The notes: generated by a model from the sequence alone, not told the origin. Positions 1 through 34,686 are shown, numbered from the stretch's first letter. The stretch: 64,000 nucleotides of DNA from Gloeobacterales cyanobacterium ES-bin-313 (GCA_014379585.1 JACMLN010000098.1:1-64000); one strand, 5' to 3'. A program made the numbers and translations.

Positions 1-176
1 CCCACACCCCCTTGGCAACTTTAGTGGCTTGGTACTTGGTGTTGCTGGGTTGCGCAGTCCTCTTCCCACGTTGCGGGTGGGTGCGCAACCACCGCAGTCT
101 GTGGACTGGTGGCACGGTAGGTATGACGCTGCGCGTCCCAGACTCATGGCGAAAACCATTGAATTCAAAATTAAGA

Positions 177-220
177 ATTCAAAATTCAAAATTAAGAATT
201 CTTAATTTTGAATTTTGAAT
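177..220. repeat. perfect 44-bp palindrome built from AATTCAA/AATTAAG heptamer units, centred on GAATTC
   Basis: Read directly: 177-198 is the exact reverse complement of 199-220; further heptamer units lie at 161-176. Confidence 0.8.
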
Positions 221-310
221 TTCCCCGCGTGGTGATGCGGAATTGGAGAGGGATCGGGAGATGTTTGGGTTAGCGATGGGAGGCGCATTGGGTTTGGGTG
301 CCTCAGTCAC

Positions 311-17390: not shown

Positions 17391-17834
17391 TTACAAAAAC
17401 CAGCCTTCATCGTCAGCATCCTGGATCGGTGCAGGAAAAGAAATGACTTCGCGCTTCATATCGTTGGCTTTGGCGCGCAGAGGAACAAGAGCACTTTGTG
17501 GTTGTGCCGGAGCGAGGGTGGTCTGCGGTTTTGCCTCGACTTTCGCAGGTTTTTCAAGCTTTGCAATGCGCTCTAGAAGCTCTTGCTCGCGCTTGCCACT
17601 GGCTGCTTTTGCGTCCTTCAAAAAGGCTTCGAGTTCAGCAACACGTTTGGCAAGGTCTGCTTCGTGGCGATGTTTTTCTGAAACTATCGGCTTTTCAGCT
17701 TCAGATAGCTGTTCAGATAGGGCTGCAATTTGCTCTTCGGCGCGGCCAAGGGCGGTTCGCAGTTCAACAATCGTCACTTCAAGATCTGCTTTGGTCGGAA
17801 CGCGTCTAGGGGTATTCATCGGGGTCTCACTCAT
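17391..17834 (-). CDS. coiled-coil hypothetical protein, last gene of the rbc operon
   Basis: E/K/A-rich heptad-like sequence; 8-nt overlap with the raf1 stop. Confidence 0.45.
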   Translation of the reverse strand: MSETPMNTPRRVPTKADLEVTIVELRTALGRAEEQIAALSEQLSEAEKPIVSEKHRHEADLAKRVAELEAFLKDAKAASGKREQELLERIAKLEKPAKVEAKPQTTLAPAQPQSALVPLRAKANDMKREVISFPAPIQDADDEGWFL

Positions 17835-19595: not shown

Positions 19596-21020
19596 TTAGA
19601 GTTTATCGACGGCTTCGTATTCGAACTTGATTTCCTTCCAGAGTTCGCAGGCGGCAGCCAGTTCAGGACTCCAGCGGCAAGCTTCACGGATGATGTCTCC
19701 GCCTTCGCGCATCAAGTTGCGGCCTTCGTTGCGTGCCTTGAGGCAGGCTTCGAGGGCGACGCGGTTTGCTGTCGCGCCCGGTGCGTTGCCCCAGGGGTGA
19801 CCGAGGGTTCCACCACCGAACTGAAGCACGGAGTCATCGCCGAAGATGTCTACGAGGGCAGGCATGTGCCACACGTGGATACCACCGGAGGCAACAGCCA
19901 TGACACCAGGAAGCGAGGCCCAATCTTGGGTGAAGTAGATACCACGAGAGAGATCGCGTTCGACGTGGTCTTCGCGGAGCAAGTCTACGAAGCCCATGGT
20001 CGAAGCACGTTCGCCTTCGAGCTTACCGACGACGGTGCCTGTGTGGATGTGGTCACCACCGGAGAGGCGCAAGGTCTTCGCCAAGACGCGGAAGTGGATA
20101 CCGTGGTTCTTTTGACGGTCAATAACAGCGTGCATCGCACGGTGAATATGCAGCAACATACCGTTGGCACGGCACCAGCGAGACAAGGACGTATTGGCGG
20201 TGAAACCAGCCGTCAAGTAGTCGTGCATGATGATCGGGGAACCGATTTCTTTGGCGAATTCGGCGCGCTCGAACATTTGTTCGACAGTGGGTGCGGTGCA
20301 GTTCAGGTAGTGACCCTTGATTTCGCCTGTTTCTGCTTGAGACTTGGAGATCGCATCTTGCACAAACAAGAAACGGTCGCGCCAGCGCATAAAGGGCTGG
20401 GAGTTAATGTTTTCGTCGTCCTTGGTGAAGTCCAAACCACCACGGAGACATTCGTACACGGCACGTCCGTAGTTCTTGGCGGACAGACCCAATTTGGGCT
20501 TGATGGTACAGCCAAGCAACGGACGACCGTACTTGTTGATTTTGTCGCGCTCAACGATGATGCCGTGGGGAGGCCCTTCGAAGGTCTTTGCGTAGGCAAT
20601 CGGGATGCGGATGTCTTCGAGGCGAAGGGCTTTGAGCGCTTTGAACCCGAATACGTTACCGACCAACGAAGTGAGCAAGTTGGTGACGGAACCTTCCTCA
20701 AACAAGTCCAGAGGATAGGCGATGTAGCAGATAAACTGGTTGTCTTCGCCAGCAACTTGCTCGATGTCGTAGCAGCGACCCTTGTAGCGATCTAGCTCCG
20801 TGAGCATGTCTGTCCAAACAGTCGTCCAGGTACCTGTGGAGGATTCTGCCGCAACAGCTGCTGCCGCTTCTTCAATCGGTACACCCGGCTGGGGTGTTAC
20901 ACGAAAAGCCGCCAGGATGTCTGTATCTCTTGGGGTGTAATCTGGGGTGTAATAGGTGAGCCGATAATCTTTAACGCCGGCTTGGAAACCACCTTTGTTC
21001 ATGGTCTGTGAGTACGACAC
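19596..21020 (-). CDS. rbcL: RuBisCO large subunit, form IB (probable GTG start at 21020, not the ATG at 21041)
   Basis: Full-length RbcL with [14 protein letters not shown] and catalytic-loop motifs; AAGGAGG lies 5 nt upstream of GTG 21020-21018. Confidence 0.95.
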
Positions 21021-21127
21021 GTCTACCTCCTTAAGTCTCATTGGTCAACGCGTAGGAGTCGTCGCTTCGCATTGCCTATGCAAAGCATCGTAGTAGTGTA
21101 GGGTTTATGAGTAAAGTCAATGATCCT

Positions 21128-21158
21128 TATGGATAGAGTAGAGTTTAGTCTATCCATA
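21128..21158. promoter_or_regulatory. LysR-type (T-N11-A) palindromic operator candidate between the divergent rbcL and ndhF3 operons
   Basis: TATGGATAGA-N11-TCTATCCATA, perfect 10-bp inverted arms read directly. Confidence 0.45.
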
Positions 21159-21353
21159 ATCTTTACTTTATGGGTCTATCAGACTTCTTTATACCCTAAC
21201 TTTAAAAATTGATCCAGAACGCAAATTTATGTTTCCATGAGGCAACAGAAAGCATAAACAAAAATCTATTCTTTTTATAAAAATCATTGACTTTTCATAA
21301 TGCAAAACCTTCTCTATCCTGATTTGCAGGACTGGTAGTAGGTATCGCGGATC

Positions 21354-23159
21354 ATGGCCGAAACGTTCATTCACTCTGTATGGCTGATTCCTTGTTATGG
21401 AATCGTTGGGATGCTCTTTGCCTTGCCTTGGTTTCCAGGGGTCATCCGGCGCACAGGCCCACGGCCTTCGGGGTATGTCAATCTCTTAATGACCCTATTC
21501 GGATTTTTGCACAGTCTTTTCACCTTTGTTTTGGTGTGGGGAAAGCCGGCACAGACCGAAAGTTTCACCTGGCTAGAGGCGGCAAACTTGAAGCTCAGCT
21601 TTGGATTTGAGATTTCTTCCTTGAGTGTTGGTGCCTTGGTGCTCATTACAGGACTTAACTTCCTGTCTCAAATCTTCGCAATTGGCTATCTAGAGATGGA
21701 TTGGGGTTGGGCACGGCTCTTTGCCCTCCTCGGTCTTTTTGAAGCAGGCATGGCAGCGCTCGTGCTTTGCGACAATTTATTTTTTAGCTACTGCATCCTC
21801 GAAATTCTGACCCTCGGCACCTACTTACTCGTTGGGTTCTGGTTTAACCAATCCTTGGTGGTATCGGGAGCGCGGGACGCTTTTTTGACAAAGCGCATCG
21901 GCGACTTATTGCTACTCATGGGCGTGATCGCTCTGCTCCCCTTGGCAGGTTCATGGAACTATCAAGATCTGGCACGTTGGGCGGCGAGAACAACTATCGA
22001 TCCGACCCTGGCAACCCTGCTGGGGCTGGCACTGATCTCTGGCCCCATCGGCAAATGTGCCCAGTTTCCCCTGCACCTCTGGCTCGATGAAGCCATGGAA
22101 GGACCACTGCCAGCGACTATTTTGAGAAATTCTTTAGTCGTCACCACGGGCGCATGGGTTTTAGTCAAAATCGCACCGATCCTTGCCCTATCGCCTGTAG
22201 TTTTAGGCACCTTAATTGTGATTGGTAGCATCAGCGCAGTCGGTGGCTCCTTGATCGCCATCGCCCAGATCGATATCAAACGCGCTCTTTCTTTCTTGGT
22301 CAGTGCCTACTTAGGACTCGTTTTCATCGCCGTTGGTATTGGTCAAACCCAAGAAGCCCTACTTTTAATCCTCACCTTTTCGCTCTCCATGGCTTTGCTT
22401 GTGATGAGTGTAGGAGGAATTATCTGGAACTGCATGACCCAAGATCTTACCCAGTTTGGCGGACTGTGGTCGCGTCGTCCCATCTCAGCCATTGCTTTTC
22501 TTGTTGGTGCTGCAGGACTGGTTGCCTTTCCGCCTTTGGGAAGTTTCTGGGCTTTCCTGCAATTGGCTGAACAGGTTTCGCCCTGGCTGGTAGGGCTATT
22601 GCTGTTAGTGAACACCTTGACAGCGTTTGGTCTTGGGCGCGTTTTTGGGCTTGTCTTTGCTGGTGCAACCCATCCGATGACCGAACGGGCTCCGGAAGTG
22701 CACTGGCCAATGATGGTACCGACGACGCTCCTAGCTGGCTTCGTTCTCCATCTACCCATTGTGCTCTGGCAAGTTCAGCTCATACCAGCCCAATGGATCG
22801 ACACGACTTTGCTGTTTGCGATTGCACTTTCGACAAGCAGCATCTTCGGGGGGATTGCTGGTTTTCGTCTGCGATTGGCGCAACTACCCTGGCCTCGTGT
22901 CCAAGAGATGCTCGCTCGCGACTTTTACACAGGCGATATCTATCGGTTGAGTGTCGTTTTTGCAGTAGCACAAATATCCCAGATAGTTTCAATTGTTGAC
23001 CGCTACTTTGTCGATGGCCTGGTGAATTTGGTAGGCTATTTCTCGCTTCTGGGCGGCGAAAGTCTCAAGTATAGTACCAGCGGTAGAACCCAATTTTATG
23101 CCCTCACAATCCTGCTGGGAATTGTTGCTATGGGCTGTGCTGTTGCTGTGCATTTCTAG
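21354..23159 (+). CDS. ndhF3: NDH-1 subunit F3 (CO2-uptake NDH-1MS)
   Basis: 601-aa NuoL/NdhF-like antiporter subunit followed by ndhD3-cupA. Confidence 0.8.
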   Translation: MAETFIHSVWLIPCYGIVGMLFALPWFPGVIRRTGPRPSGYVNLLMTLFGFLHSLFTFVLVWGKPAQTESFTWLEAANLKLSFGFEISSLSVGALVLITGLNFLSQIFAIGYLEMDWGWARLFALLGLFEAGMAALVLCDNLFFSYCILEILTLGTYLLVGFWFNQSLVVSGARDAFLTKRIGDLLLLMGVIALLPLAGSWNYQDLARWAARTTIDPTLATLLGLALISGPIGKCAQFPLHLWLDEAMEGPLPATILRNSLVVTTGAWVLVKIAPILALSPVVLGTLIVIGSISAVGGSLIAIAQIDIKRALSFLVSAYLGLVFIAVGIGQTQEALLLILTFSLSMALLVMSVGGIIWNCMTQDLTQFGGLWSRRPISAIAFLVGAAGLVAFPPLGSFWAFLQLAEQVSPWLVGLLLLVNTLTAFGLGRVFGLVFAGATHPMTERAPEVHWPMMVPTTLLAGFVLHLPIVLWQVQLIPAQWIDTTLLFAIALSTSSIFGGIAGFRLRLAQLPWPRVQEMLARDFYTGDIYRLSVVFAVAQISQIVSIVDRYFVDGLVNLVGYFSLLGGESLKYSTSGRTQFYALTILLGIVAMGCAVAVHF

Positions 23160-26404: not shown

Positions 26405-26635
26405 TACCGATTCATAAACAGCAAATTCTTCCTACCACGCGTAGCGCAATAGGGTTGGGACGCGCAGCGTCATACCTACCGTGCCACCAGTCCACAGATT
26501 GTGGTGGTTGCGCACCCGAGCGCAACCTGAGACAAAGCCTGCGCAACCACTGAACACTAAGCATCAAGCCACTAAAGTTCGCCGAGGGGGTTTGGGGGAC
26601 GGGCGCGTCCGTCCCCCAAGGGGCGGGAGTCCAGA

Positions 26636-33480: not shown

Positions 33481-34686
33481 TTATGAAAAGTTTTCAAAAA
33501 AAGTGGTGGGTTTTTTGAAAATCTCCGGTGTGAGTCGGCCAATTAGTGGATTTAAGACGGCATTGTAGTAGAGCAGATCTGCAGCTTGGGCGATTGCCCA
33601 TCCAGCTGTGCCATAAAGTTCTTGGCCATCGACGAGGGCAACCCCATCGAAAGCACCGAGGGAGAGGGCAATGCGATCCACCGAAGGCACAAAGGCAATG
33701 GTGGATTGTCCTTGTTGTTCCGCCAGAATATTTGTGGCGACGACCTCGGCGGCTCGAAGAGCGAGTTGCCCGCAGGGAGGATAGTTTTTTTCTCCATCCC
33801 TCGGCAAAATACTGTCCCCAACTGCATAGACGTAGGGGTAATCGACCATGCGACAATCGCTGCCAACTCGCAAAAACTGTTGGGCATCGCGCAGCCCCTC
33901 CGGCTCCTCCTCGACGCGCACGGGCTGGGTACCACCCGCCCAAAGCAGGGTTTGGGTCGCCAATTCTTCGCCACCATCAGGCCCATCTAAGATGGCCATA
34001 TCGGCTCTGACCCTTTTGACTTGGGTATCGAGCTGAACAATGACGCGGTGGCGGCGAAACCACCGCAAGACCCAGTCTGAAACACTGGCTGGCCACTCTG
34101 GAAGCAAGCGATCACTGCGCTGGACAAGGTGGATCTGGATCGCATCGGCGAGGCCACCGTAGCGTTTGCGCCAACGCCGAGCCAGATGCACCAACTCAGC
34201 CGCTAACTCGACCCCCACCAATCCCCCACCGACGATGACCCAGCGCAGCAGCTTGAGGTCACATTGTTCGCGTTTGAGTGCCTCCTCCAAACTCGACCAG
34301 TGGTTAAGGATCTGCTGAAGATCTTCGAGTGTATATAGAGGTAGGCTGTAGCGAGCCGCACCAGGTACGCTCAAGCGCCCCTCAGAGCCAACAGCAAGAA
34401 CGAGGCGATCAGCTCTGAGGGTTTCGCTGTCAGTTTCAACTTCCAATGCCTCAAGATCGATGCGTAGGGCATTTGCCTTGATGTGGCGCACTTTGCTGTC
34501 GAGCAAGCGCGAATAGGGGAGGCTGACATCTCGCAGAGGCACGCGACCAGCAGCAGCAGCGACAAGACGCGGTCGCAAAATGTGTTCGCTCCTCGGCTCG
34601 ATCAGGGTAACTTGCAGATTGTGTGCAGCTAAGGTCTGGACGACCCGCAAACCAGCGTATCCCCCACCGATAACAACTACGTGCAT
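33481..34686 (-). CDS. NDH-2-like FAD/NAD(P)H pyridine-nucleotide-disulfide oxidoreductase
   Basis: Two Rossmann GxGxxG motifs (VVIGGGYAG, IVGGGLVGVE). Confidence 0.75.
   Translation of the reverse strand: MHVVVIGGGYAGLRVVQTLAAHNLQVTLIEPRSEHILRPRLVAAAAGRVPLRDVSLPYSRLLDSKVRHIKANALRIDLEALEVETDSETLRADRLVLAVGSEGRLSVPGAARYSLPLYTLEDLQQILNHWSSLEEALKREQCDLKLLRWVIVGGGLVGVELAAELVHLARRWRKRYGGLADAIQIHLVQRSDRLLPEWPASVSDWVLRWFRRHRVIVQLDTQVKRVRADMAILDGPDGGEELATQTLLWAGGTQPVRVEEEPEGLRDAQQFLRVGSDCRMVDYPYVYAVGDSILPRDGEKNYPPCGQLALRAAEVVATNILAEQQGQSTIAFVPSVDRIALSLGAFDGVALVDGQELYGTAGWAIAQAADLLYYNAVLNPLIGRLTPEIFKKPTTFFENFS

Follow-up and report, generated by a model that had tools for sequence, protein, structure and literature searches.

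A near-perfect palindrome between the divergent rbcL and ndhF3 operons of a Gloeobacterales cyanobacterium is a candidate CcmR/NdhR-type operator of an rbcL-facing promoter

The intergenic region that separates the divergently oriented Rubisco and CO2-uptake operons of the Gloeobacterales cyanobacterium ES-bin-313 contains a 33-bp near-perfect palindrome (21127-21159; all positions refer to the window, i.e., the whole 64,000-nucleotide stretch of DNA that was analyzed). We consider it probable that rbcL is served by an inverted copy of the CcmR/NdhR-regulated ndhF3 promoter and that the palindrome is the upstream operator of this copy; judged by its sequence, the palindrome most likely belongs to an operator of the CcmR/NdhR class. 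A CcmR/NdhR-type control element is in itself known; the atypical, extended symmetry and the apparently duplicated promoter that faces rbcL are new.

Almost all that is known about how Rubisco and the CO2-concentrating mechanism are regulated comes from Synechocystis and Synechococcus, where RbcR controls rbcL and NdhR/CcmR handles the uptake systems. In the window, the minus strand carries an rbcL-rbcX-rbcS-raf1 operon, whose first gene, rbcL (19596-21020), encodes 474 amino acids from its GTG start. The plus strand carries ndhF3 (21354-23159) as the first gene of an operon that continues with ndhD3, cupA/chpY, and the gene for a fasciclin-type (fasciclin-fold) CupS protein. These gene assignments agree with the divergent arrangement of rbc and ndhF3-ndhD3-cupA-cupS given in a preliminary description of this DNA, and the palindrome does lie, as was said there, in the control region of two carbon-fixation operons, between rbcL and ndhF3. 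The AT-richness of this region was likewise borne out (36% GC vs. 50-60% GC in the flanks). Its extent had been given as 310 bp (21042-21353); the right edge stands, but the left edge most likely does not. The start of rbcL is most likely the GTG codon at 21020, which follows an AAGGAGG sequence as in Gloeobacter, and with the start placed there the intergenic region comprises 333 bp (21021-21353). No LysR gene was found within the 64-kb window. We also noted a 147-amino-acid ORF without Pfam or NCBIfam match directly downstream of raf1 (17391-17834, minus strand), which has counterparts of 142-147 amino acids at the same position in L133, L134, and L145. About 190 nt downstream of the cupS-like gene, a GC-rich perfect hairpin (26592-26619; TTGGGGGACGG-GCGCGT-CCGTCCCCCAA) could be the terminator of the ndhF3 operon.

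At 90% identity, the RbcL protein encoded in the window clusters with those of Gloeobacter violaceus and G. morelensis, and a protein of a metagenome-assembled genome (MAG) labeled 'Gloeobacterales cyanobacterium' (MBC7881724.1) matches it with 99.8% identity. The window NdhF3, compared with that of named Gloeobacterales, is only 66% identical. We found the same region on three related metagenomic contigs: L133, which is close to the window, and L145 and L082, whose lineage encodes an NdhF3 that is 93% identical to that of the window. Contigs related to the window are present in the Logan assemblies SRR32059639 and SRR11670876 and in the JGI dataset 3300080854.

The perfect 10-bp inverted repeat from which the analysis started, TATGGATAGA at 21128-21137 followed after 11 nt by TCTATCCATA at 21149-21158, is present as stated, and its perfect arms proved to be 1 nt longer than first noted: TTATGGATAGA (21127-21137) and TCTATCCATAA (21149-21159) are 11-nt arms with N11 between them. 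The entire 33 bp are nearly palindromic about position 21143, with mismatches confined to the pairs 21138/21148 and 21141/21145. Within the arms, perfect half-sites are found in inverted orientation, ATAGA at 21133-21137 and TCTAT at 21149-21153. The T-N11-A geometry that had been ascribed to the repeat did not survive this inspection, since a dyad centered on 21143 gives A(21137)-N11-T(21149), i.e., ATAG-N13-CTAT. LysR-type boxes in general are recognized by T-N11-A in an interrupted dyad of about 15 bp; here, the palindrome extends over 33 bp, and the box nested within it (see below) reads T-N12-A.

Such a structure is not readily obtained by chance. When we simulated the intergenic region with a first-order Markov model (Markov-1), a perfect inverted repeat whose arms measured 11 nt or more and whose spacer did not exceed 20 nt turned up in only 0.07% of the simulations (P~0.0007), and GATAGA-N5-17-TCTATC was observed once in the window against an expectation of 0.01. 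In the 64-kb window, eight different perfect inverted repeats reach 10 nt or more (1.3 expected); the palindrome is the only one of them seen in a divergent promoter region, and several of the remaining repeats are hairpins located at the 3' ends of genes or immediately beyond them. Two further repeats deserve mention. One, TTTTCAAAAAA-N9-TTTTTTGAAAA (33491-33521), is a perfect hairpin that resembles a bidirectional terminator in being flanked by A/T runs on either side, and it is located just inside the 3' end of a pyridine nucleotide-disulfide oxidoreductase ORF (ends 33481). The other, near the start of the window (162-222), is AT-rich and forms a long palindrome with perfect 23-nt arms, AATTCAAAATTCAAAATTAAGAATTCTTAATTTTGAATTTTGAATT, and internal AATTCAAAATT repeats.

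Several other identities of the palindrome found no support, and those of a dispersed repeat and of a terminator can be excluded. It is present as a single copy in the 64-kb window, unlike a dispersed repeat or mobile element. Neither a terminator-like site nor a T-run was detected in 20950-21450; only three of the 11 pairs of the stem are GC pairs, and the site lies between divergent gene starts. The sole match in Rfam was to a snoRNA model (E=0.9), far below the gathering score. A metagenome scan with the 18-base pattern ATGGATAGA-N11-TCTATCCAT returned 47 loci, none of them cyanobacterial, and provided no regulon information: the matches were unrelated coding motifs or proteobacterial hairpins, and 21 of the 47 represented a coding motif from one sample. 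Two metagenomic loci, L091 and L113, share 8 of the 11 spacer bases with the window, but both are a gammaproteobacterial hairpin situated between rnfH and bamE, two convergent genes.

According to PMC13249358, the consensus of NdhR/CcmR is ATAG-N8-CTAT (citing Klahn et al. 2015, Jiang et al. 2018), that of CmpR is TTA-N7/8-TAA, and that of RbcR, in the Synechocystis rbcL and CCM promoters, is ATTA(G/A)-N5-(C/T)TAAT (citing Bolay et al. 2022). We searched 82 loci for ATAG-Nx-CTAT within 450 nt upstream of ndhF3, with coding sequences serving as controls. The N8 spacing yielded 24 matches in the 82 upstream regions vs. none in the coding controls, most of these boxes being ATAGA-N6-TCTAT; the N13 spacing was found once in the 82 loci. 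Both this survey and the published consensus identify ATAGA/TCTAT as CcmR/NdhR half-sites. Of the CcmR/NdhR/RbcR class to which the palindrome had been assigned, the CcmR/NdhR part is supported at the level of the half-sites. The regulatory idea is the same for the Synechocystis RbcR box, a dyad of the LysR type that lies upstream of both rbcL and ndhF3 and coordinates Rubisco with genes of the CO2-concentrating mechanism, but its motif is absent here: the intergenic region contains only matches with two mismatches, which are at chance level (40 window-wide, 48 expected). The CmpR motif is too degenerate at 36% GC for a meaningful match. At ten Nostoc-clade loci (L007, L013, L017, L018, L022, L023, L026, L047, L052, and L067), a conserved ATAG-N14-CTAT (ATAGATAAA...AATA(C/G)CTAT) replaces the N8 box at about -243 to -289 from ndhF3; non-canonical spacings of the ATAG/CTAT half-sites therefore recur elsewhere.

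An exact ATAG-N8-CTAT box does not occur in the 64-kb window. We built a position matrix from the 24 N8 boxes found upstream of ndhF3 in other cyanobacteria, all of which possess exact ATAG/CTAT ends, and the two best matches of the whole 64-kb window both fell inside the 333-bp intergenic region, with scores at the bottom of the range of the training set. The best match (13.6 bits) is a box with canonical spacing that is nested in the palindrome (21138-21153, minus strand; ATAGACTAAACTCTAC, corresponding to GTAGAGTTTAGTCTAT on the plus strand). It reads GTAG-N8-CTAT and hence carries one mismatch to the consensus (GTAG, or CTAC on the other strand). The second-best match (12.7 bits) is a box proximal to ndhF3, ATAAACAAAAATCTAT (21254-21269, plus strand), which also carries one mismatch (ATAA-N8-CTAT). 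Its counterpart in L145 is the perfect ATAGAGCTTTACCTAT, and those in L133 and L082 are ATAGATAAAAG(C/A)TTAT.

A repeat search revealed a 41-nt inverted repeat (I1, 32/41) between 21113-21153 and 21254-21294, and with the sequences anchored on the box, a common module emerges: a 16-nt box, a 13-nt linker, the 12-mer ATCATTGACTTT, 19-20 nt, and TAnnnT. One module faces rbcL, the other ndhF3. On the minus strand, the rbcL-side module consists of the box at 21153-21138, the linker at 21137-21125, and the 12-mer at 21124-21113 (AAAGTCAATGAT on the plus strand), exactly 13 nt from the box; the ndhF3-facing 12-mer (21283-21294, plus strand) is also 13 nt from its box, as in G. kilaueensis (L084). 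The exact 12-mer has these two occurrences in the window and is found elsewhere among 141 loci only in the lineage of the window (L081, L133) and in G. kilaueensis (L084, L085). The same module spacing is present on both sides in L133 and L145, on the ndhF3 side in L082, and in the ndhF3 promoter of G. kilaueensis, and near-identical modules occur in Stenomitos and other cyanobacteria (L009, L019, L003, L011). These data bear on the earlier suggestion that one operator could serve both arms of the carbon-concentrating mechanism, which we had to give up: there are two separate, inverted modules, and ndhF3 has a box of its own at 21254-21269, perfect in L145. The palindrome is not a single shared operator but belongs to the rbcL-facing module. 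A mirror-image, plus-strand module to the right of the palindrome (TCTTTACTTT, 21160-21169) was considered and rejected; it is weak, has the wrong spacing, and is not conserved in L082 and L145.

Downstream of each 12-mer, candidate promoter elements can be recognized. Those of rbcL are the -35-like TTTACT (21110-21115, minus strand), invariant in the window, L133, and L145, and the -10-like TACGAT (21087-21092, minus strand), which begins 20 nt after the 12-mer and is invariant in three lineages. Those of ndhF3 are the -35-like TTTTCA (21292-21297, plus strand), invariant in all four sequences, and the -10-like TATCCT (21315-21320, plus strand), which lies within the invariant block TTCTCTATCCT. 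The TAnnnT of other modules reads TAACAT at ndhF3 of G. kilaueensis, TATCAT in L009, TACTAT in L019, and TATGAT in L003 and L011. CATAAT (21296-21301) and CATAAA (21109-21104, minus strand) were dropped as -10 elements because they reside in variable stretches (CATAAT/CATCAT/CATTAT and CATAAA/CGTAAA/CAAAAA, respectively), and the invariant TATCCT and TACGAT match the distance from the 12-mer to the -10 in other species. A consensus promoter scan gave another proposal for ndhF3 (TTTATA-16-CATAAT). TTGACT inside the 12-mer was discarded as a -35 element; it is 14 or 22 nt away from any conserved -10. A third copy of the half-site, TCTATCC (21311-21317), is found in the invariant block (21309-21320), where it overlaps the putative ndhF3 -10 element TATCCT; it is complementary to GGATAGAG of the palindrome (inverted repeat I6).

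From these elements we infer transcription starts at about 21080 (rbcL) and 21327 (ndhF3). Both boxes would then be centered at -65.5 of their promoters, 116 bp apart from center to center, and the 12-mer would span about -44 to -33; the center of the palindrome would be at about -63 of the putative rbcL promoter and at about -184 of the putative ndhF3 promoter. In the classical LysR promoter, a recognition site is located near -65 and an activation site near -35, with T-N11-A dyads (Schell 1993). The predicted positions of the window boxes and 12-mers agree with this layout, but the dyads differ from T-N11-A, being T-N12-A in the canonical box and A-N11-T in the long arms. We propose that the nested box (21138-21153) is the recognition site of the rbcL-facing promoter and that the rbcL-side ATCATTGACTTT is its promoter-proximal contact site, which would overlap the -35 region.

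The conservation of the region was assessed by comparing the window with L133, L145, and L082, a set of four sequences that represent essentially two sublineages. Among the window, L133, and L082, only 1 of 33 columns of the palindrome is variable vs. 50 of the 237 shared intergenic columns (21%; P=0.0024). With L145 added, both arms are invariant in four sequences, and the palindrome changes only at the spacer positions 21144 (L145) and 21147 (L133). The putative -35 and -10 hexamers are constant and the 17-nt spacers between them vary (five positions on the rbcL side); in the ndhF3-proximal box (21254-21269), the ATAG/CTAT-like ends are kept and the N8 interior changes freely. This pattern fits a protein-binding dyad and a promoter. 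Between the modules lies the longest of the fully conserved intergenic blocks (21189-21236; TTTATACCCTAACTTTAAAAATTGATCCAGAAC..AATTTATGTT.CCA), which is nearly invariant across the four sequences and is located at about -91 to -138 of the putative ndhF3 start and -109 to -156 of that of rbcL. It contains no match to the NdhR, RbcR, or CmpR motifs and could be the site for another regulator common to both promoters. The L082 contig ends at the equivalent of window position 21117, 10 nt before the palindrome and inside the TCAATGAT element; this may be a matter of chance, or the assembly may have broken there because of the inverted duplication or strain variation.

Both substitutions observed in the palindrome fall into the loop or inner bulge region of a predicted RNA hairpin, which would fold with -15.1 and -12.5 kcal/mol on the plus and minus strands, respectively (z ~-3.8). 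The palindrome might accordingly function as RNA, in a long rbcL 5' leader or an upstream or antisense transcript, and affect mRNA stability or translation; a weak TATAAA (21194-21189, minus strand), situated in the fully conserved block, could start such a leader. We regard this as very unlikely. The putative promoters place both transcription starts downstream of the palindrome, which would leave it untranscribed, and the promoter scan did not call the candidate upstream promoter, whose -35 is poor. The AT-rich stem lacks a T-run and a match in Rfam, and since the arms never vary, there are zero compensatory changes that would speak for base pairing.

In Gloeobacterales relatives, the gene divergent from ndhF3 encodes a LysR-type regulator, and the intergenic region between this ccmR-like gene and ndhF3 contains boxes of the form ATAGAGTT(T/G)GGTCTAT. 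The core of the palindrome compares with these boxes as having essentially one extra TAGAG. In several MAGs, the box beside the ccmR-like LysR gene possesses a doubled right half-site (ATAGAGTT.GGTCTATCTAT; 3382-3401 in L083, 1880-1899 in L143 and L144). Gloeobacterales MAGs also contain an unannotated ORF of 101-123 amino acids between ccmR and ndhF3, for which we found no Pfam match.

The resemblance to these boxes raises the question of whether the extended symmetry has any function at all. The core can be written as A(TAGAG)(TAGAG)TTTAGTCTAT, and the removal of one copy gives ATAGAGTTTAGTCTAT; the L133 version, collapsed in the same manner, is identical to the ccmR-proximal box of the MAG L144 (ATAGAGTTTGGTCTAT), the collapsed box being otherwise nearly identical to such boxes of Gloeobacterales MAGs, and relatives double the other half-site similarly (CTATCTAT). 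The symmetry could thus be a mutational product, either a (TAGAG)x2 tandem duplication or a template switch at a canonical CcmR box, that seems conserved only through the closeness of the relatives, the comparison resting on four sequences. The low variability of the palindrome (1 of 33 columns vs. 21% elsewhere) argues against such a relic, as does the fourth sequence, which adds only a second change in the spacer. Moreover, the collapse cuts the linker between box and 12-mer to 8 nt and breaks its otherwise constant length of 13 nt. In view of these data, a functionless origin of the symmetry appears highly improbable to us.

The module model outlined above does not account for the perfect 11-nt symmetry. 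The outer symmetry has two sources: the linker starts with TCTAT (rbcL-reading strand; ATAGA on the plus strand), a perfect half-site that is 5 bp out of register with the imperfect CTAC, and CCATAA of the linker is mirrored by TTATGG. One LysR dimer cannot contact both perfect arms, since the N13 spacing is 5 bp, or half a helical turn, wider than the canonical one. The 11-N11-11 palindrome might therefore be the operator of a different, symmetric regulator, such as an RbcR-like LysR paralogue with ATAGA specificity or a non-LysR dimer, that overlaps the CcmR-type box and provides rbcL with its own control. From center to center, the arms are separated by 22 bp, or two helical turns, which puts them on one face of the helix and could suit the reading heads of a non-LysR dimer, whereas ATAG/CTAT at N13 do not fit one LysR dimer. 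The outer TTATGG/CCATAA is perfectly symmetric and invariant but does not match the weak flank preference of CcmR boxes, and the extra symmetry is restricted to the rbcL-side module. On the other hand, the half-sites are exactly those of CcmR/NdhR, the Synechocystis RbcR motif is absent, and neither the window nor the metagenome scan yielded the long palindrome a second time; CCATAA coincides with ATAA in the linker of every module, and the symmetry may in part be a by-product of this. On balance, we view a separate regulator as unlikely.

We return to the palindrome as part of an rbcL-facing, CcmR/NdhR-type promoter. In an NdhF3-based genome scan, rbcL was located within 4 kb upstream of ndhF3 at none of 80 other cyanobacterial ndhF3 loci; none of these loci was usable as a source of the orthologous region, and they served for the box statistics. 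In G. kilaueensis and two other cyanobacteria, the module is absent upstream of rbcL, and the rbcL upstream regions of the window and G. kilaueensis share no homology beyond the ribosome-binding site. NdhR of Synechocystis has been reported not to regulate rbcLS (PMC2860132). Control of Rubisco by the CcmR class would therefore be lineage-specific, and the wiring appears to be specific to the lineage in which rbcL occupies the place of ccmR.

In comparison with known NdhR/CcmR operators, the palindrome possesses the same ATAG(A)/(T)CTAT half-sites. A box with canonical spacing is nested in it, and a second such box is found at the equivalent of the G. kilaueensis ndhF3 box. The context upstream of ndhF3-ndhD3-cupA-cupS is likewise shared, although the palindrome's own module faces rbcL, a gene that has not been reported as a target of NdhR. 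The perfect arms are spaced by N13 instead of N8, both N8 boxes of the window deviate by one mismatch each, and the regulator gene, divergent from ndhF3 in Gloeobacterales relatives, is not adjacent in the window. An older motif for NdhR (Sll1594) is TCAATG(N10)ATCAAT, and a similar sequence, TCAATG(N10)AgaAAT, occurs in the rbcL promoter of Synechocystis (PMC2860132), providing precedent for an NdhR-like motif upstream of rbcL. ATCATTGACTTT includes TCAATG, one half of this motif, so that TCAATG(AT) is present once per window module at a fixed distance from the box (21116-21121, plus strand; complement of 21286-21291). The window has, however, only the TCAATG half, without an ATCAAT partner at N10, and the position differs: in Synechocystis, the motif is located at -22 to -10 from the rbcL start codon, in the window about 92 nt upstream.

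In the reading that we favor, a LysR-type tetramer of the CcmR/NdhR class, encoded outside the window, would bind the dyad and the promoter-proximal element at each promoter. Expression of Rubisco and CO2 uptake would thereby be coupled to a common metabolite signal, 2-oxoglutarate and 2-phosphoglycolate, as for NdhR in Synechocystis. What the sequences show is the anatomy of the region, its conservation, and its likeness to ndhF3 promoters elsewhere; the transcription starts, the binding protein, and whether regulation is positive or negative are deduced. The second perfect half-site in the linker might offer two alternative dimer registers, or a site for a second protein. A bolder scenario, which we hold to be possible but doubtful, is that the Rubisco operon moved to the position of ccmR and gained an inverted copy of the ndhF3 promoter, whose operator was then remodeled into a two-register (N8/N13) palindrome, so that Rubisco synthesis became wired directly into the low-CO2 repressor circuit. 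If the two-register reading is true, a LysR tetramer could switch register with its effector state, or a second regulator could compete for the site; an operator with such a two-register (N8/N13) geometry is not known from cyanobacterial LysR regulators.

The promoter grammar that emerges from this analysis, box-13 nt-ATCATTGACTTT-20 nt-TAnnnT, is testable and common to cyanobacteria from Gloeobacter through Stenomitos, and it joins the older (TCAATG) and the newer (ATAG-N8-CTAT) NdhR motifs in one module. The practical value is modest; the element may plausibly be regarded as a bidirectional pair of CO2-responsive promoters. Should a duplicated ndhF3-type promoter with a CcmR box drive the rbcL operon of this early-branching Gloeobacterales lineage, it would represent a clear natural case of regulon rewiring by promoter duplication and would inform how carbon fixation and carbon uptake were coupled in thylakoid-less, deep-branching cyanobacteria.
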